Below, piece by piece: positions 3,767 through 11,442 of a DNA stretch of 64,000 nt. Source of the DNA: a virus (taxonomy: Duplodnaviria > Caudoviricetes); IMG/VR virus record IMGVR_UViG_3300035491_000281; one strand, written 5' to 3'. The notes beneath the pieces were generated by a model, which had not been told where the DNA came from, ran no database searches, and saw only the letters and a program-made list of their open reading frames with translations. Every line of letters starts with the position of its first letter. The first letter of the stretch is position 1. Both the position numbers and the translations under genes were made by a program.

Positions 3767-4168
3767 ATGGAAATGCCAAAACTCACTCGCATCCAGCCAC
3801 ATCTGTTCCAGGCGTACTATGCCTGGATGGTTGAGAACGCGGCCAAGATCATGATCTACGTTGACGCGGTCCGACTCACCGACGAGTTTCTGAAGAGTAA
3901 GGCCGGTCCCGACGGGACTCTGGCGTTGGATGTTACGCCCCAGGCGGTTCGTTTCCTGTCAACCTCCCAAGAAGGAATTTCTTTCCACACCCGCTTTAAG
4001 GGTGTCGATACGCCGGTGGTGATTCCCTTCGAAGCCTTCAGCACCCTGGCCGGCTGGATCACCGGTTACGAAGAGCCGGTGGTGCTGGTCTTCCCAATGG
4101 TAGAAGATGTGGAGACGCTCCCGACCCCGCCGCAGGACAACCGCCCGAAGCTGACGGTGGTGAAGTAA
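3767..4168 (+). CDS. sspB: SspB-like ClpXP specificity-enhancing adaptor
   Basis: AYYAWMVEN, LDVTPQAV and ISFHTRFKGV match the SspB core; the C-terminal RPKLTVVK matches the ClpX-binding tail (E. coli RPALRVVK). Confidence 0.85.
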   Translation: MEMPKLTRIQPHLFQAYYAWMVENAAKIMIYVDAVRLTDEFLKSKAGPDGTLALDVTPQAVRFLSTSQEGISFHTRFKGVDTPVVIPFEAFSTLAGWITGYEEPVVLVFPMVEDVETLPTPPQDNRPKLTVVK

Positions 4169-4229
4169 AGAAGACGTCAGGTGTCCGAGGACACCTGCGT
4201 TATACCGCTTTCGGCTCGGGGAGGGGCTG

Positions 4230-4469
4230 ATGACTGTTTCAAATCTACTGTGGCTAGCGCTAATATCAGTACTACTGACGTTGGTAGGTGGTAAGCTGTT
4301 TCATCTACTGCTTAGCCGTAACATGCTGGTATTCACGTTCGCCGTGGTCGAAACTACCGAGGTTGAAACCTACCGTTGCCACCTACAGCGGTTAGCCTGG
4401 CTATATCTGACCGCTATGGCAGACCTGTTTTTACTGGGGGTTATTGTTCTGATGCTGGAGAGTACTTAA
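4230..4469 (+). CDS. Small hypothetical membrane protein
   Basis: Two hydrophobic stretches; GGAGGG SD. Confidence 0.5.
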   Translation: MTVSNLLWLALISVLLTLVGGKLFHLLLSRNMLVFTFAVVETTEVETYRCHLQRLAWLYLTAMADLFLLGVIVLMLEST

Positions 4470-4620
4470 CCATGCGCGATATACTCAGCGAGCGGATCGA
4501 GTATCGGAGGCGTGCTCGCCAACGTGACTTTATCTTCTACACCGGACACCTGACCTTCATTGCACTAAACCTTGGTTATGCCGTGAGTCAGTTAGTGTCG
4601 TAACTTAGCGAGGGTCTAAC

Positions 4621-5061
4621 ATGGATCGGTTCTCCACGCAAACTGAAACCGCGCGGGCGGTATGGCAATACGCCCTAAAGTCAATGATTGCAGAACTGGT
4701 CGTAGGGGGTGAATTCATGTCAGTGAGTTACCCCGACACGGACAGCAACCCAGCATTGCCCGAAATCGTGGTGCGGTTACCGCTGGGGGAGGATCACATG
4801 CTCAAAATGGCGTTGTTCGTCCACCCTTCACTGGCCGCCAGAGAGCTACTGGTCCTTTTACCGACTGAACGCGAGTTGATGGAGGCCTTCCCGCTACTGC
4901 GGGAAGAGCCACGTCTTTATGCCGGCCTGATCCGCTTCATCAACCGCACTCAACAGTACGGTCTGCGGATGCGCATTACCGAACCCCACGAGGGGTTCAA
5001 ACGGCTGGAGTTCACGTACATCAACGACCGTTCCTTTACTGTAAAGATGGTATTCCAATGA
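4621..5061 (+). CDS. Hypothetical protein
   Basis: 146-aa ORF with GAGGG SD; stop overlaps the next ATG (ATGA). Confidence 0.6.
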   Translation: MDRFSTQTETARAVWQYALKSMIAELVVGGEFMSVSYPDTDSNPALPEIVVRLPLGEDHMLKMALFVHPSLAARELLVLLPTERELMEAFPLLREEPRLYAGLIRFINRTQQYGLRMRITEPHEGFKRLEFTYINDRSFTVKMVFQ

Positions 5062-5252
5062 GCAATCCCAACAACTGCGATACCTGCCGCTACAAAGAAA
5101 TCAACCGGTCGGCTGGGTATTGTTACATGTTCGCCGAAAAGCCCACCGAGATCTGCATGCAACACAGCCACCGCGAGCAGGGGGAGTTATCCTTTCTCTC
5201 ATCAGTGTTGCGGAACCTGGCAGGTCGCCCGAAGGAGCATATTGGTGAATAA
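5058..5252 (+). CDS. Small Cys-rich protein (possible metal-binding)
   Basis: CxxC...C...C...H pattern; translationally coupled to the upstream ORF. Confidence 0.55.
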   Translation: MSNPNNCDTCRYKEINRSAGYCYMFAEKPTEICMQHSHREQGELSFLSSVLRNLAGRPKEHIGE

Positions 5253-5348
5253 AACCCTCAACCCGGTAGTCCGCAACCAAACGCTGGTGATGGCGCGGGC
5301 CGGGGGCCAGACTTTACCGCCGAAACTCTGCACCTGATCGTAACGGGC

Positions 5349-6866
5349 ATGCAAGCCTATTACGAGGAGCAGTGGCTCGCCGAGAAGGGTAGTTTGAGCG
5401 AAGACGAGAAGTCTACCATCGCCGCTCGGGTCAAGCGGGAAGTGCGCGAAAACCGCTGGGACGAGGCCAGCAACACCATCATGGTGAATGCTGCGCAACA
5501 GGCCGCCTTTGAGGATGTGGTTCACCACTATACTCGGGTTTTCACCGACCCGAACTACACGCAGGCATTCCGTCCGACCAACTACATCAACGACCCGAAG
5601 GATTTGCGTGATCTCTCGGCTTTCACCTTCTGGGGGGCGTGGGTCACCGTGGCGGAGCGCCCAGGGCAAAGCTACAGCTATACCCATAACTGGCCGTACG
5701 ATCCGGAAGCGGGTAACTACCCGACCAAGGACACCTACGTCTGGAGTTTCCTGTCGATTGCTGCACTGTTCATCGGTATCATGGCCGTGCTCTACATGTA
5801 CGGTCAAATGAAAGCCACCGGCGATGATCCGTTCAAGGAAAGTCTGCGAGCTGGTATTCTGATGTCGACCCCAGATCTGGAAAAGGGTGTGGTGCGTCCA
5901 ACGCAGCGCAAAACCTACCGTTTCTACATGCTGGCCGCAGTGGCGTTTGGACTGCAGGTGTTGGCCGGGTTCCTCTCGGTCATGGACTTCGCCGATCCAT
6001 TCCATGAAACCATCGCCGGGATTCTACCCTACACAGTGCTGCGCAGCTACCACACCCTGTTGCAGATTTACTGGATGTTCATGTGCTGGGTGGGCTACAC
6101 CATCTTCTTCCTGCCGCGGTTGGCGCCAGTGCCGAAGTATCAGGACAAGTTGATTGACCTGCTTTTCTGGCTGTGTGTGATCGTGGGTGTCGGTGGTGTT
6201 GCAGGCGTCTACTCCGGATACAACGGACTGATCACCGGCATGATGGCCTACTGGTTTGGCAGCCAGGGCTGGGAGTTCATGGCGCAGGGACATCAGAAGT
6301 ACGTCATGGAAGGGGTTTGGCTGTTCGTCCTGGCGGTGAACTTCTGGAACATCTTCGCTGCTGGTGTCTTGGGTTCGCTGCTGAACCTACCCATCATCAA
6401 CTACTTCGAGCACGCCACCTACATCACGGGCAACCACGCTCATGGCGCCATGTTCGGGGTGAAGGGTAACATCGCCCTCGCTGGGGTGTTGTTCTGCTGC
6501 CAGCACCTGATCAAACCGGAACACTGGAATGCCCGACTGATTAAGGTGTCCTTCTGGGCACTCAACATCGGCCTGGCGCTGATGATGTTCCTGGCCCTGT
6601 TCCCGGCCGGGATGTATCAACTGCTGATCATCCTCGAATCGGGATACTGGGCGGCACGGGTGCAGGAAGTCACCGGTGGGGAAATGTTCCGCATGTTCAT
6701 CAACCTGCGCGGGATCGGTATCACGATCTTCTCCATTGGCATGCTGATGATGGTGTGGTTCTTGCTCTCGCGGGTACGCCACCTGCGGGCGGAAACCCAA
6801 CCTGAGGGTGACAACTGGGCCAACCATGAAAATGATTGGCGCAAGCAGCGGGACGAAGCCCTGTAA
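5349..6866 (+). CDS. nod: NOD (nitric oxide dismutase)/qNor-family heme-copper superfamily protein, N-truncated with an internal in-frame deletion; possibly a pseudogene
   Basis: YTHNWPYDP, RSYHTLLQIYW..CWVGYTIFFLPRL, WFGSQGWEFM, YVMEGVWLF, NYFEHATYITGNHAHGAMFGVKGN; homology extends upstream of the ATG (GDGAGRGPDFTAETLH from ~5286); no H(M/L)WVE or HH/HN FeB motifs present. qNor superfamily is secure; the NOD subfamily call is from recalled sequences. Confidence 0.8.
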   Translation: MQAYYEEQWLAEKGSLSEDEKSTIAARVKREVRENRWDEASNTIMVNAAQQAAFEDVVHHYTRVFTDPNYTQAFRPTNYINDPKDLRDLSAFTFWGAWVTVAERPGQSYSYTHNWPYDPEAGNYPTKDTYVWSFLSIAALFIGIMAVLYMYGQMKATGDDPFKESLRAGILMSTPDLEKGVVRPTQRKTYRFYMLAAVAFGLQVLAGFLSVMDFADPFHETIAGILPYTVLRSYHTLLQIYWMFMCWVGYTIFFLPRLAPVPKYQDKLIDLLFWLCVIVGVGGVAGVYSGYNGLITGMMAYWFGSQGWEFMAQGHQKYVMEGVWLFVLAVNFWNIFAAGVLGSLLNLPIINYFEHATYITGNHAHGAMFGVKGNIALAGVLFCCQHLIKPEHWNARLIKVSFWALNIGLALMMFLALFPAGMYQLLIILESGYWAARVQEVTGGEMFRMFINLRGIGITIFSIGMLMMVWFLLSRVRHLRAETQPEGDNWANHENDWRKQRDEAL

Positions 6867-6883
6867 CAAAATCGACTAACGTC

Positions 6884-6920
6884 GGGCATAGGCCTCTCCC
6901 GCGGGAGAGGCTTTATGTCG
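6884..6920 (+). terminator. CATA-hairpin-TTATGTCG intergenic element
   Basis: GCCTCTCCC-gc-GGGAGAGGC stem flanked by GGCATA and TTTATGTCG. Confidence 0.65.
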
Positions 6921-7098
6921 TCAGATGTCGGTCCTACCCCCAAGCGCGCCAAAAGCCGCTGAGACTACTCCAAACGGACTCGGGTACCCTACGGCGGTCG
7001 TGCTGTCGATCGCGCTGTGACGGCGCCGACAGGGGCTCTGAATAGCACTGCAGATAATAACCGATGGCGGACACGGCGGTACCTCAATTGAATCGGAT

Positions 7099-7114
7099 TT
7101 CAGGTCTATATAAC
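7099..7114 (+). promoter_or_regulatory. Candidate early promoter (variant TATATAAC)
   Basis: TTCAGGTCTATATAAC resembles the recurring TTGRRNNYATATCAC motif; lies upstream of a new transcription unit. Confidence 0.4.
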
Positions 7115-7173
7115 GTTGATGTACCAAGTCCAGCAAGGCTTCGGTCCCACCCCTAATCTGAAGGAAGATTATC

Positions 7174-7341
7174 ATGCGTATCAAAGTCGGTCCCGTCTCG
7201 ATCAACACCAACAACCTGAACATCACCCTCGACCGCCGCACCATCAAAGGCGCCCCGGTTTGGAAACACGCAGCCTATGTCGCCGGTGGTGTTATTGCCA
7301 CCGCCGCAGCCGGTGCCGTCGTCAGTAACTTTCGTCGTTAA
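7174..7341 (+). CDS. 55-aa small protein with a C-terminal hydrophobic helix (not in the ORF track)
   Basis: MRIKVGPVSINTNNLNITLDRRTIKGAPVWKHAAYVAGGVIATAAAGAVVSNFRR; AAGGAAG SD; mostly C-ending codons. Confidence 0.65.
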   Translation: MRIKVGPVSINTNNLNITLDRRTIKGAPVWKHAAYVAGGVIATAAAGAVVSNFRR

Positions 7342-7364
7342 CCCGCCCAAGGAAACCTCTCAAA

Positions 7365-7670
7365 ATGCCGCACAATACCGCCAGCAACAAAATTGTCGAT
7401 CTCATCGAACGCCGCGTCCGCCTCAACCAAAAGCGTGGCAACAGCAACCCCGTCACGCTGACCGCCACCATCGACGAACTCAAGGCCCTGATGAGCCTGG
7501 ACCGTCTGAAGACCATCACCCGCAACCGCCTGATTAGCAAGCTGGAATCGCATGGTTACGAGGTGACCTTCACCGGTGGTGAGTTGGTGATCACGGTCGA
7601 TCCGGCGGAGCGCGATTGTCTGTTCACCAGCATCGAGGATCTCGAAGATTCGCTGGAAGAAGACGAGTAA
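7365..7670 (+). CDS. Hypothetical protein with acidic C-terminus
   Basis: AAGGAA SD, strong codon bias, followed by a hairpin element. Confidence 0.7.
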   Translation: MPHNTASNKIVDLIERRVRLNQKRGNSNPVTLTATIDELKALMSLDRLKTITRNRLISKLESHGYEVTFTGGELVITVDPAERDCLFTSIEDLEDSLEEDE

Positions 7671-7810
7671 CCGACATAAGCGAGGTCCCGAAAGGGCCTC
7701 GCTGTCGCGTGTTCTTTTTTTTTCTTCGTCCGATCTTTACCACAACAGCCGCGTAGGGAGGTTGACGGAAAAAAGGGAGACCCACAGGTCTCCCGGGTTT
7801 GTAACATCAA

Positions 7811-8917
7811 TCAGAAGTCAACCGCGAACTGTACTTCCTCGTCGTCGCGCGACAGCACGTTGACCTTGTATTGGCCATTGGCTTCTTCCTGAGGGGAAGG
7901 TTGGGTGTCGGAGATGTCGATCCAGCTCTTCATGTAGTGCAGAGGATTGGTTTCGACCTGCGGGAAGTTCATTTCCAGACGCAGGGGGCGGGCGACGTTG
8001 GTCGCCGAGAACAACACCCAGCGGTTGAGGCCGTCCATGGTCAGCTTCTTCAGGTCCTCCCCCTCGGCAAACACGAACTTGTTCCACTCAAGCTCGGTGG
8101 CAACGATCTCATTGAGTACCGCCTCCATCCGGGGTTTGAGTTGTTGGTAGGCAATCTGCCCGCGTTCGGTCTTGAGTTCATGGGTGAGCACCGCCCGATC
8201 GAGGTCAACATGGACTTCGTATTCGTCCTGGCAGATTTTCTGCACCGCCTTGCAGATTGGCATGAACAAGCCTTCTTCCCCAAGCGCAAAGGTCACGGCA
8301 AAAGAGGCCATGAACTGAACTCGCTCCAGGCAGAGCATAACGAAGGCGAACATGAAGACCGCATTGTAGGTCTCCTGATCGTTCGGTACCATCCCCAAGG
8401 CGTACTTCAGACCCCGCTCCCGAATCCAACTCAGCTCGCGCGCGACCGCGTTCAGGCGTTGCATGGCTTCGGTGATCGACAGGATCTCGGCCAGCACGCT
8501 GCGCGGGTCGTCGAAGCTGGAGCGGACGATTTCCGAGTAGGTGGCGGCGTGCACCACTTCGTTGTCGGAAATGCGCTGCCAGGCGGCCCAGAGTTCCGGA
8601 CAGGGGTCGAACAGACTGATCACGTGGGCGATGGTGCGGGAGGCCACCGTATCGGCTTCCCACTGCCAGGCCAGCGACTTGATCATCTTCTGCGACTTAG
8701 ACCGTGGCGCCTGCTTGAACTGGGCGTTGCAGGGATGGTAGTCGAATTCGATTTCATCCCAATCCAGTTCTTTCATCGCCTTGTACAGCGACCAGACCAC
8801 CGGGTGATTGCGGTTGACGGTGTCGAACAACCCCAATGGTTGACCGAGGAACAGACTCTGCTCTTTATAGTCGGTTTTCTCGGCATTGAAAATCTTTGGA
8901 TCAAACGTAACAGTCAT
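7811..8917 (-). CDS. nrdB: Class Ia ribonucleotide reductase beta subunit
   Basis: Di-iron ligands WQWEAD, NEVVHAATY (radical Tyr), LERVQFMASF, QDEYEVH; C-terminal QYK tail. Confidence 0.95.
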   Translation of the reverse strand: MTVTFDPKIFNAEKTDYKEQSLFLGQPLGLFDTVNRNHPVVWSLYKAMKELDWDEIEFDYHPCNAQFKQAPRSKSQKMIKSLAWQWEADTVASRTIAHVISLFDPCPELWAAWQRISDNEVVHAATYSEIVRSSFDDPRSVLAEILSITEAMQRLNAVARELSWIRERGLKYALGMVPNDQETYNAVFMFAFVMLCLERVQFMASFAVTFALGEEGLFMPICKAVQKICQDEYEVHVDLDRAVLTHELKTERGQIAYQQLKPRMEAVLNEIVATELEWNKFVFAEGEDLKKLTMDGLNRWVLFSATNVARPLRLEMNFPQVETNPLHYMKSWIDISDTQPSPQEEANGQYKVNVLSRDDEEVQFAVDF

Positions 8918-8973
8918 GTGTTAAACCTGTAAAGAAAGGAAGGGGTGAAGTGCTCGGCTCCACCCCCTGGTAG

Positions 8974-11442
8974 TTACATCTTGCAGCCGCCCGCACCGCA
9001 GTCAGCCGCTTCCTGGCCGTCGGTGTTGAGGGAAACCACCTCTACCATGGTGCCGTCATCCAGAGCTTTCTGCTTGGACGTCATGCTGTTCTGGTAGTAA
9101 CGCGACTTCAGGCCCATCTTCGTCATGTAGAAGAAGCCGTTGAGCATTTCCGTCGAGGTGATCTTCTCCCCTTGCGAGATCCGCCGCCAGAGGTCGGCCG
9201 AGATGCCCTGATCGGTCCACTTCTGCGCAATGGCGTACATGTCGACCTGATCGATGTGGCTGAGATCCCAGGCAGTCTGGTAATGGTCGCCCAGAGTATC
9301 GCCTTCCGGGGCAGCCCAACGCGACTTGATGTTGTTGTCGGTCTTGGTCAGTACCAGCTCCCGCACCGGGTACAGGGAGTTCGGCTGACCAGAGGCCTTG
9401 GAGCTGGACTCGCCCGGCATGTGGCTGGCTACACAGCTGAAACGCATCCCGCGGTTGGCAATGAGTGCGGCACGAACCGCATCCCAGTCACGGGTCAGTT
9501 CTTGTGTATGGATACTGTCAACGTTGCGGTTGTAGGTATCCAGCGGCAAGTAACCTTCCGGCCAACGCGTGCGGTGCATCCACGGTGCATTCCCCCGCTC
9601 CTGACCCAGCTTGATCGACTGAGTGATCAGGTGGTACATGTGGGTCTCGTGCAGGCGGTGCATGGCGTTCTTGCCTTCAATATCGTCGTAACGATAGTGA
9701 TTCTTCGCCATCCAGTAGGCCAGGCCCATGATACCGATACCGGCGTTCATGCGGGCTTTGCTGGTGTAACCGATATGCGGTAGTTCGTAGTGCGCCTTGT
9801 GAATGCAGATATCCACCATCAGTAGGGCGTAGTAGATGACCTCGGCGTACTCTTCGTCCGACTCGATCATCGCCGGCACTACCGCGGCAATGTTACACAT
9901 GGCCACTTCCGGCTCAGCCTTGGTTTCGAGGATCTTCCAGACCTTACCGACTTTTCCATCCTGCGTGGCGTAGGACTGACCCACCTGCAGGTCAATGGCC
10001 GGAATTACCGTGCGTTTCGTACCCACCACGGTTACCGGTTCCACAGCCGACAACTTCAGCTCTACGCCGCCGTCGTTGATGAAACGGATGAAGCCCACCG
10101 ATTCCGCCTGGTACAGATCCATCATGTGCTGGTAGCCACGCTGTGGCAGCATGATTTCCTGACACAGATTGGAGGCGTAGATGGTGTCGTAGAACGGGGT
10201 GTGACGATTCATCTCGTCAACCCAGGTCAGGTAGTAGCGACCGGTCTCGTATGCTTCGTTCAGCGCCAGCAGGATCTGCTCACGGGCGTTGAAGTAGTCC
10301 TTGACAAACAGTGGGTCCTGTTCGTACTTGGTGTAGAGCTCCTCGAAGCGCTTCTCGTCGCCCGAGTACAGAGCGTCGTAGAGATCTGGCGCGGTGAAGC
10401 TGTTGAAGCGGAACAGCTTTTCCTTGCGGGCAGCGAAACGGGCCAGCCATTTGTTGACCGACATGCTGTAGTCGATCCCGCGGATCTTTTTGCTGTCTAC
10501 CGACATCGGGTTAGCCAGCGAGACCAGGGTTTCGCCTTCGGGGTCGTACGCCTGCCAGGTCAGCGTGTCAGCGCCACCGCGACCATTCTGCAGATTCGCG
10601 CCGACCATCTCTTTGGTGGCACGGATGTACGGTAGTTTACCCTGGTGTTCGATCATACCGCCGCGCACCGGATCACCGATGGAGCGGGTATTGAGGTGCG
10701 TACCACAACCGGCCGACATGTAGGTCATGGTGTAAGCAATATGCAGACCCACCCCGATGGACGCGGCATCGTCGTTGTTGCTGTAGATGCAGCAGGAGGC
10801 GTAGCCATTCAGTGGCGTGCCCAGGTTAACGAAATTCGGGGTCGGGGCATTCAGACGACCACCGGAGAGGTGGTAGTAGAGGCGCTCGACGTCGCGCATG
10901 CGGCGCGCTTTGGGTTGGTCTTCGGCCAATGCCATGGCCATGCGCATGTAAGTGTATTGCGGGGTCTCGTAGTTGACGCGCTTGACGCGGTCCTGCAACC
11001 CGTACTTCTTGAAAATGTAGTCCAGACGGAAGTGTGGGTAGGTCTTGTCGAGGTTGTGGTTGATGATCTGCTCGACCTGCGCATATTCAGCGTCGCTGTA
11101 GCGCAGTTTGACCATGTAGCCAATTCCAGCCAGTTTCTGATGCAGTTCTTGCACCGTCGGCATCTGGCGACCAAAGGTGCGCTTGTGCAGCAACGGGGCG
11201 AGCAGGCGTCCAGCCATGAGGTAGTGCGACCAGGTTTCGCCCTGCAGGGTACGCTCAATCAGGCGGTCCTGCAACTCCAGAGAGCTGAGTACGGTCGGGG
11301 CTTCGTTGACGACATCAAGTAAAATACTCTGCCAGTCAATCTGGACCGGTAGGTTCTCCGCAGCATACTCTCCCCAACGCTTAAGCTTGGGGGCAATGAA
11401 GGGTTCACTGTAGCCGTCGAATTTGATAACTTCTTTGATCAT
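8974..11442 (-). CDS. nrdA: Class Ia ribonucleotide reductase alpha subunit
   Basis: ATP-cone-like N-terminus, PTP, ASCC, SNLCQEI, MCN, HMPGESSS, KSRYY, C-terminal CGAGGC. Confidence 0.95.
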   Translation of the reverse strand: MIKEVIKFDGYSEPFIAPKLKRWGEYAAENLPVQIDWQSILLDVVNEAPTVLSSLELQDRLIERTLQGETWSHYLMAGRLLAPLLHKRTFGRQMPTVQELHQKLAGIGYMVKLRYSDAEYAQVEQIINHNLDKTYPHFRLDYIFKKYGLQDRVKRVNYETPQYTYMRMAMALAEDQPKARRMRDVERLYYHLSGGRLNAPTPNFVNLGTPLNGYASCCIYSNNDDAASIGVGLHIAYTMTYMSAGCGTHLNTRSIGDPVRGGMIEHQGKLPYIRATKEMVGANLQNGRGGADTLTWQAYDPEGETLVSLANPMSVDSKKIRGIDYSMSVNKWLARFAARKEKLFRFNSFTAPDLYDALYSGDEKRFEELYTKYEQDPLFVKDYFNAREQILLALNEAYETGRYYLTWVDEMNRHTPFYDTIYASNLCQEIMLPQRGYQHMMDLYQAESVGFIRFINDGGVELKLSAVEPVTVVGTKRTVIPAIDLQVGQSYATQDGKVGKVWKILETKAEPEVAMCNIAAVVPAMIESDEEYAEVIYYALLMVDICIHKAHYELPHIGYTSKARMNAGIGIMGLAYWMAKNHYRYDDIEGKNAMHRLHETHMYHLITQSIKLGQERGNAPWMHRTRWPEGYLPLDTYNRNVDSIHTQELTRDWDAVRAALIANRGMRFSCVASHMPGESSSKASGQPNSLYPVRELVLTKTDNNIKSRWAAPEGDTLGDHYQTAWDLSHIDQVDMYAIAQKWTDQGISADLWRRISQGEKITSTEMLNGFFYMTKMGLKSRYYQNSMTSKQKALDDGTMVEVVSLNTDGQEAADCGAGGCKM

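Follow-up and report, generated by a model that had tools for sequence, protein, structure and literature searches.

The closest described systems are the putative nitric oxide dismutases (NODs), which differ from canonical qNor (in Geobacillus numbering) by the loss of the quinol-site residues His328, Glu332, Phe336, and Asp746, by an Asn in place of His560, and by a Gln in place of the catalytic-site Glu (PMC3413370, PMC10286720). A putative NOD clade is formed by DAMO_2434 and DAMO_2437 of Methylomirabilis oxyfera together with strain HdN1, and the superfamily as a whole is marked by a histidine sextet in which two residues are ligands of the electron-transfer heme, one of the catalytic heme, and three of the non-heme metal (PMC3413370). 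Dismutation of nitric oxide (NO) to N2 and O2 by NOD is termed "speculation" in Ettwig et al. 2012 (PMC3413370) and "postulated" in Gazitúa et al. 2021 (PMC8115048). A viral NOD-like norB from oxygen-deficient ocean water has already been published (Gazitúa et al. 2021, ISME J, PMC8115048); it is full length, was reported as apparently functional, and has nirK beside it, on a scaffold of 52.9 kb that also encodes T4 core genes. Here we examine a 64,000-nucleotide stretch of DNA ("the window") from IMG/VR virus record IMGVR_UViG_3300035491_000281, which carries a truncated NOD-like gene of the qNor family whose product we call P0001. This open reading frame (ORF) is probably a recent, nonfunctional relic of a full-length NOD-type auxiliary gene long carried by phiKZ-like jumbo phages.

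P0001 comes from the same sequence lineage as the M. oxyfera/HdN1 NOD clade, which it also resembles in the hydrocarbon-rich habitat of its source. It differs from those proteins in lacking the whole catalytic block (His508, Glu512, His559, and positions 560 and 581), the N-terminal helix, and five of 14 helices, with three of the six signature histidine positions left, and judged by its residues it cannot be an active NOD. Among solved structures it is best matched by the Geobacillus stearothermophilus qNOR (PDB 3AYF/3AYG), on which an AlphaFold2 (AF2) model superposes with a template modeling score (TM-score) of 0.76, although P0001 does not conserve the quinol-site residues, has nothing to match chain residues 431-599 of 3AYF, and is missing the N-terminal ∼117 residues. 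The gene of Gazitúa et al. (PMC8115048) is, like P0001, a phage-encoded NOD-like NorB related to Magnetovibrio/HdN1-type sequences; set against it by description only, the window copy differs in sitting in a phiKZ-like 231-kb phage, in having no nirK neighbor, and in being doubly truncated. The Magnetovibrio homolog P0022 is 59% identical to P0001.

The window comes from a phiKZ-like jumbo phage. The attribution to a jumbo phage, made in a first-pass annotation of the window, agrees with a virus record of 231,290 bp whose ends overlap by 127 bp and which encodes a phiKZ-type major capsid protein (PhiKZ_MCP, E = 3e-220) and an S80 prohead protease (Peptidase_S80, E = 1e-89). The public runs with DNA of this phage are two tar-pit metagenomes (X1 and X2), a landfill metagenome (X3), and a further metagenome (X4); X1 and X2 may be the source samples of the virus record and hence are not fully independent of it.

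A truncated NOD-like open reading frame

The remnant and the positions at which it retains heme-ligand histidines are as follows.

5349-6866, plus strand: truncated NOD-like (qNor family) remnant P0001, 505 codons, 505 amino acids
P0001, parts kept: residues 1-126 (remainder of the cytochrome-c-like domain), the second qNOR helix, core helices I-III, the joint, and core helices IX-XII
6051-6053, plus strand: codon of His235 in the motif RSYH, aligned with 3AYF His355
6435-6443, plus strand: codons of His363-Ala-His365 (HAH), the histidines aligned with 3AYF His651 and His653

Pfam profiles recognize P0001 as NorB_cytochrome_c-like (PF22085, E = 1e-27), over only profile positions 62-181 of 181, and as COX1 (PF00115, E = 1e-25) in two stretches. 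The PDB search matched 3AYF at E = 1e-75, likewise in two blocks, with query residues 8-327 corresponding to chain residues 118-451 and query residues 306-501 to chain residues 594-788. By this significant homology the sequence belongs to the qNor family of the heme-copper oxidase superfamily. All motifs quoted in the first-pass annotation for a 505-codon frame of the qNor superfamily are present in P0001, and the heme-ligand positions that it described as kept (RSYH and HAH) are indeed retained in the alignment with 3AYF. Its start of the gene at 5286 needs correction, since the ORF begins at 5349 and 5286 is the first position of homology. Following heme-copper oxidase convention, we take His235 to be the helix II position and an axial ligand of heme b, and His363 and His365 to be helix X positions and ligands of heme b3 and heme b, respectively. 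The histidine sextet is incomplete, with three of its six positions present (His235, His363, and His365) and the others (508, 559, and 560) falling within the deleted block described below.

The residues that are left point to a NOD-type ancestor. Three quinol-site residues of 3AYF are replaced in P0001 (His328 by Met212, Glu332 by Asp216, and Asp746 by Ile458), and the nearest relatives are alike in this. The closest full-length relative, P0002, and other close relatives carry HMWVE, His559-Asn560, and Gln581 when mapped on 3AYF, so that the Asn560 and catalytic-site Gln typical of the NOD active site are seen in the nearest full-length relatives; P0001 itself shows none of the catalytic-site features of NOD because those positions are deleted. 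The kinship of the gene to NOD rather than to canonical qNor, first proposed from its motifs, is supported by the quinol-site replacements in P0001 and on Asn560 and Gln581 in its nearest full-length relatives.

An in-frame deletion of the catalytic block at a probable direct repeat

In an alignment of 12 close homologs (A1), in which the full-length proteins are all 750-860 amino acids long, P0001 lacks a single 174-residue block between ...GSQGWEFM and AQGHQKY..., at nucleotides 6281/6282. The missing block corresponds to P0002 residues 417-590 and contains HMWVE and HN in every close relative; mapped to 3AYF through P0002, it holds His508, Glu512, His559, Asn in place of His560, and Gln in place of Glu581. 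Because the block covers them, the positions of the three non-heme-metal ligands and of the catalytic glutamate are gone. An in-frame jump at ∼6281/6282, read in the first-pass annotation as the loss of the metal-site interval (∼170 amino acids), is thereby resolved as a clean 174-residue gap, and the deletion itself is real rather than a reflection of naturally short best matches, all 120 homologs listed being full length. Heme-copper oxidases carry their ligands on helices II, VI, VII, and X; by this numbering the lost block comprises the five core helices IV-VIII. The joint itself is located as follows.

6266-6282, plus strand: internal deletion joint, the surviving single copy of a 17-nucleotide direct repeat (G GGC TGG GAG TTC ATG G) encoding GWEFM

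The origin of this joint is suggested by a contig of the landfill run X3 that matches the window from 6266 rightwards and whose left flank (...AWRVRREGSL) is the full-length sequence that precedes the right end of the block (position 4175 of contig L001, which carries an intact homolog). The right side of the block in the X3 relative reads GWEFM with nucleotides identical to those of the left side, and the intact gene therefore had a 17-nucleotide in-frame direct repeat at both ends of the 522-nucleotide block, as read from one 180-nucleotide X3 contig at roughly 3× depth. Recombination or slippage between in-frame repeats gives an in-frame deletion automatically, and for this reason the preserved frame is not evidence of selection. 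The missing 522 nucleotides and the missing 5' parts were not found elsewhere in the 231-kb genome.

Loss of the 5' end at a microhomology

The second lesion removed the start of the gene, and the features that define it lie immediately upstream of the ORF.

5286-5348, plus strand: vestigial NOD codons (GDGAGRGPDFTAE.LH...), 21 in-frame codons without ATG, GTG, or TTG, corresponding to P0002 residues 83-103
5289-5296, plus strand: 5' deletion or recombination joint, an 8-nucleotide microhomology, GATGGCGC
5058-5252, plus strand: upstream phage ORF, 64 amino acids, of no Pfam family, in backbone common to the X3 and X4 relatives

Alignment A1 shows that P0001 is without the first ∼103 residues, including the N-terminal anchor helix, in agreement with the earlier suggestion that this helix is missing. 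DNA and protein homology both begin at window position 5286, equivalent to P0002 residue 83, and the ATG at 5349 with which the ORF opens is an internal Met that is invariant across the family. No Shine-Dalgarno-like 4-mer was found upstream of this ATG; such a motif precedes 57% of ORF starts in the genome and 4 of the 5 phage-clade NOD genes checked, a survey that is weak evidence because the ORF starts are crude.

The breakpoint is again bracketed by related phages. An X3 contig matches the window from 5289 rightwards, and its left flank reads GLMNYGSFWG, which is what an intact gene has upstream of the 5' breakpoint (L001 position 2676). In X3 and X4, contigs follow the backbone as far as 5296 and beyond that point run into sequence absent from this genome (TTCTTTAAGACC...), those from X4 matching 4600-5296 at 99 to 100%. 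The TAA of the upstream ORF (5250-5252) is in frame with the remnant, with 32 sense codons between this stop and the ATG, which is probably a coincidence. Read-through of that stop was considered as a route to a longer product and dismissed for want of evidence; the upstream protein has no membrane anchor.

Intact relatives on phage contigs

The full-length proteins nearest to P0001 are P0002, P0003, P0007, and P0009 (83%, 78%, 71%, and 69% identical, respectively), and all of them are encoded on phage-like contigs with many small ORFs of no Pfam family. Full-length NOD-type genes with HMWVE, His-Asn, and Gln581 were located on phage-like contigs as follows.

L001, 2457-4796: full-length NOD-type gene
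L003, 6493-8862: full-length NOD-type gene
L005, 10001-12436: full-length NOD-type gene
L008, 10001-12523: full-length NOD-type gene
L013, 2192-4555: also a full-length NOD-type gene

Between them, the contigs of the four nearest relatives encode a divergent DNA polymerase, thymidylate synthase (ThyA), dCMP deaminase, DNA ligase, an S80 protease, and a protein with a weak PhiKZ_MCP match. L001 and L003 have several proteins that are 40 to 60% identical to those of the genome described here, including DNA polymerase, DUF7484, ThyA, and dCMP deaminase. The position of the NOD gene relative to these common genes varies between contigs, and the full-length phage NOD genes mostly lie among genes of replication and nucleotide metabolism.

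A maximum-likelihood tree of 74 sequences, all NOD-like by their HN motif, with neither canonical qNor nor the reference Methylomirabilis and HdN1 sequences among them, placed P0001 and the phage sequences in a supported clade that also takes in three sequences whose context is unknown or short. Sister to this clade is P0005 (72% identical), whose context is plainly bacterial, beside Bat/VWA genes and GMP synthase. Since the nearest relatives sit on phage contigs and form one clade with a bacterial sequence as its sister, the phylogeny identifies the gene as an old phage-borne auxiliary gene of this jumbo-phage group and not as a fresh host capture. The more distant NOD-like protein P0010 (63% identical) is encoded on a contig otherwise full of ankyrin-repeat genes (L014, 1-12560), a context that is odd for a free-living bacterium and could belong to a symbiont or a large virus.

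Closer relatives of the phage itself are represented in X3 and X4 by low-depth fragments that are 95 to 99% identical over the first 20 kb of the window. The NOD gene in X3 is ∼95% identical, and its contigs continue through both breakpoints into full-length sequence. The X3 NOD fragments (5289-6868) differ from the window by ∼4 to 6% and the flanking backbone by ∼1%, which means either that X3 contains two related phages or that the history of the NOD locus differs from that of the backbone, for example, through recombination. One of the X3 contigs enters the window at 7082 out of unrelated sequence, so that positions 5296-7082 seem to form a locus that varies among near-identical phages.

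No further relative was found by tblastn in an IMG/VR scan with alignment-derived peptide patterns, or by megablast of window positions 4000-9000 against INPHARED phages. Exact degenerate-pattern scans found no intact right-hand junction of the X3 type in IMG/VR or in JGI metagenome contigs, which leaves short Logan contigs of low depth from X3 as the only source for the closest intact relative. The same kind of scan found no other record of the deletion-specific junction in IMG/VR or JGI metagenomes. A functional viral auxiliary gene would be expected to be intact and kept by purifying selection across several viral lineages; the truncated architecture is unique to this genome, and it is the intact form that recurs in phage contigs. 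The orthologs with the same junction that might have been expected in related phages are accordingly missing from these collections.

Predicted structure and membrane topology

The AF2 model of P0001, built from a 75-sequence alignment, has a mean predicted local distance difference test score (pLDDT) of 77 and eight long helices, with pLDDT below 50 at the joint (residues 304-319). It reproduces the family fold with a gap in it and superposes on qNOR structures at a TM-score of ∼0.75, as the co-variation of the family would lead one to expect; it says little, and we give it no weight as a guide to real folding or function. Where an intact protein has a 12-helix core plus two N-terminal qNOR helices (14 in total), the remnant has lost the first helix and core helices IV-VIII. 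We assume that helix III ends on the outer membrane face and that helix IX starts on the inner face. Because five helices, an odd number, are lost, the two remaining halves presumably cannot both keep their native orientation unless the joint crosses the membrane.

Surroundings of the locus

The genes upstream of the remnant are small phage ORFs, and the downstream side carries a hairpin and, on the opposite strand, the genes of a ribonucleotide reductase.

6890-6914, plus strand: GC-rich hairpin with an 8- to 9-bp stem and a 4-nucleotide loop, followed by TTTAT, 24 nucleotides after the stop codon
3767-4168, plus strand: protein with an SspB (ClpXP adaptor) domain, 133 amino acids, Pfam E = 3e-7, above cut-off
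7811-8917 and 8974-11442, minus strand: small and large subunits of a class I ribonucleotide reductase, directly downstream of the remnant

The hairpin at 6890-6914 (−32.3 kcal/mol, z = −4.6) is followed by just a short U tract, is the only one of its kind in the window, and was not called by a consensus terminator scan. It lies outside the homology with the NOD genes of relatives, that with L001 ending near the stop codon. An intrinsic terminator is plausible here. The "phage-type terminator element" of the first-pass annotation thus survives as a stable hairpin directly 3' of the ORF; the short U tract, the missing call by the scan, and its uniqueness in the window count against the rest of that description.

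Origin of the remnant

The state of conservation of the remnant admits two readings. Of 164 columns with ≥95% conservation, P0001 deviates in just 3, each time by a conservative change, and its branch in the tree (0.12) does not exceed in length those of the intact sister sequences. These features indicate that the remnant has not drifted neutrally over any substantial share of its separation from intact relatives, and they fit either very recent deletions or selection that persists. We favor recency because the 21 vestigial codons at 5286-5348, which are not translated, are as conserved as the ORF, and because a close relative is still intact. Several observations weigh against a dead gene nonetheless, and we collect them here. 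The 505-codon frame is open, and within the parts that were retained every conserved residue is intact. The ratio of nonsynonymous to synonymous substitution rates (dN/dS) between P0001 and P0002 is ∼0.06, with dS saturated here and against every fetched relative, and the X3 fragments differ from P0001 in 11 synonymous and 5 nonsynonymous codons, all at variable positions (16 differing codons in contigs of roughly 3× depth). The deleted form is the sole form in two deep tar-pit runs and so is fixed rather than a rare variant. Foldseek aligns the AF2 model with 3AYF with its eight helices arranged roughly as in qNOR, and the hairpin after the ORF makes a tidy transcription unit conceivable. Sequence by itself leaves room for continued purifying selection on the remnant.

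These same observations count in favor of a retooled protein, in which the 8-helix remnant would be expressed in a new role, either as a heme- or NO-binding membrane protein or as a dominant-negative partner of host NOD/qNor through the retained dimer-interface region, and would modulate host NO metabolism during infection. Such a protein would account for the undecayed conserved residues and three heme-ligand histidines in an open frame, the mostly synonymous differences from relatives, fixation at high depth in two runs, the downstream hairpin, and the qNOR-like helix arrangement in AF2. We nevertheless regard it as unlikely, as both lesions have simple mutational explanations, with the frame kept by an in-frame repeat; five helices are lost and the periplasmic domain is unanchored; the ORF has neither a Shine-Dalgarno-like motif nor a dedicated start and leaves vestigial codons outside it; no second lineage has the architecture; the joint is modeled with pLDDT below 50; and the conservation is equally explained by recency, a close relative being still intact. 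The description of the gene as remodeled or retooled is accordingly unsupported: the 17-nucleotide repeat explains the in-frame loss and the microhomology the 5' loss, the topology is broken, no Shine-Dalgarno-like motif was found upstream of the ATG, and the junction is unshared. A more specific version, in which the remnant is translated, inserts into the membrane as an 8-helix heme-binding fragment, and pairs through the second qNOR helix and helices I-III with host NOD/qNor, poisoning or retuning host NO metabolism in the course of infection, is very unlikely; if true, it would be a phage-made dominant-negative respiratory subunit created by loss of the catalytic core.

The remnant could instead date from a fresh capture, in which an already partial NOD gene was taken directly from a bacterial host and its truncations arose at that event. 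The 5' joint is indeed an illegitimate-recombination joint with backbone DNA, and NOD genes occur in bacteria of hydrocarbon-rich habitats (PMC3413370), of which the tar-pit source is one. Yet the nearest relatives (69 to 83%) are on phage contigs in one clade with P0001, with the sequence of bacterial context as an outgroup at 72%; the run X3, which holds a 95 to 99% identical phage, also has NOD contigs intact at both breakpoints; and the GC content is that of the phage. We consider this origin quite unlikely, and of the suggestion of a decaying captured host gene we retain the decay and set aside the fresh host capture, the closest relatives being intact genes on related jumbo-phage contigs. 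An assembly artifact, with the internal jump, the 5' joint, or both produced by mis-joins across the 17-nucleotide repeat or by a host-phage chimera, is scarcely credible. Assemblers do classically collapse at short repeats such as the one at the internal joint, and both spanning runs may be source samples and so not fully independent. Against this, the 17-nucleotide repeat is shorter than the 31-mers used for contigs; contigs of X1 and X2 (separate samples and studies) at 234× and 589× span both joints with zero differences and with no alternative contig or loose end; and the genome closes on its 127-bp terminal repeat with the missing 522 nucleotides nowhere else in the assembly.

The loss of a full-length, phage-borne NOD-type gene by two short-homology events remains our preferred account. 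A deletion or illegitimate recombination at the 8-nucleotide microhomology would have fused the phage backbone to codon ∼83, with the loss of the promoter-proximal part and start codon as well as of the anchor helix and the leading third of the periplasmic domain. Recombination or slippage between the 17-nucleotide in-frame repeats, both encoding GWEFM, would have excised 174 codons and with them core helices IV-VIII, including His508, Glu512, His559, and the positions of Asn560 and Gln581. A product made from the internal Met would not be able to fold as a heme-copper-oxidase-type protein, because an odd number of helices is missing and the 126-residue N terminus, normally periplasmic, is unanchored, and it would therefore be expected to carry out no NO chemistry. 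The frame would have stayed open only as a result of the recency of the deletions and of a mechanism that kept the internal one in frame.

Implications for auxiliary genes of jumbo phages

The remnant resembles other decaying auxiliary ("moron") genes of phages in being a non-core gene at a variable locus that is intact in some relatives and is broken here by short-homology deletions. It does not differ from them in principle, and is unusually well resolved in that both breakpoints and the repeats can be read. The relic itself matters little, beyond providing a clear, base-resolved example of the loss of an auxiliary metabolic gene through short-repeat deletions and a warning that a gene can be dead even though its frame is open over 505 codons and its family motifs are perfect. 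The more valuable lead is the presence of intact NOD-type genes in at least four related jumbo-phage contigs. Viral NOD-like norB had been reported once before, from an ocean oxygen-deficient zone; these contigs add another phage group, as well as anoxic habitats rich in hydrocarbons. Close relatives of the phage occur in tar-pit and landfill metagenomes, and such natural pairs of intact and broken genes could show any benefit of the gene to the phage, for example, the supply of oxygen to, or the removal of NO for, the adjoining O2-dependent class I ribonucleotide reductase.

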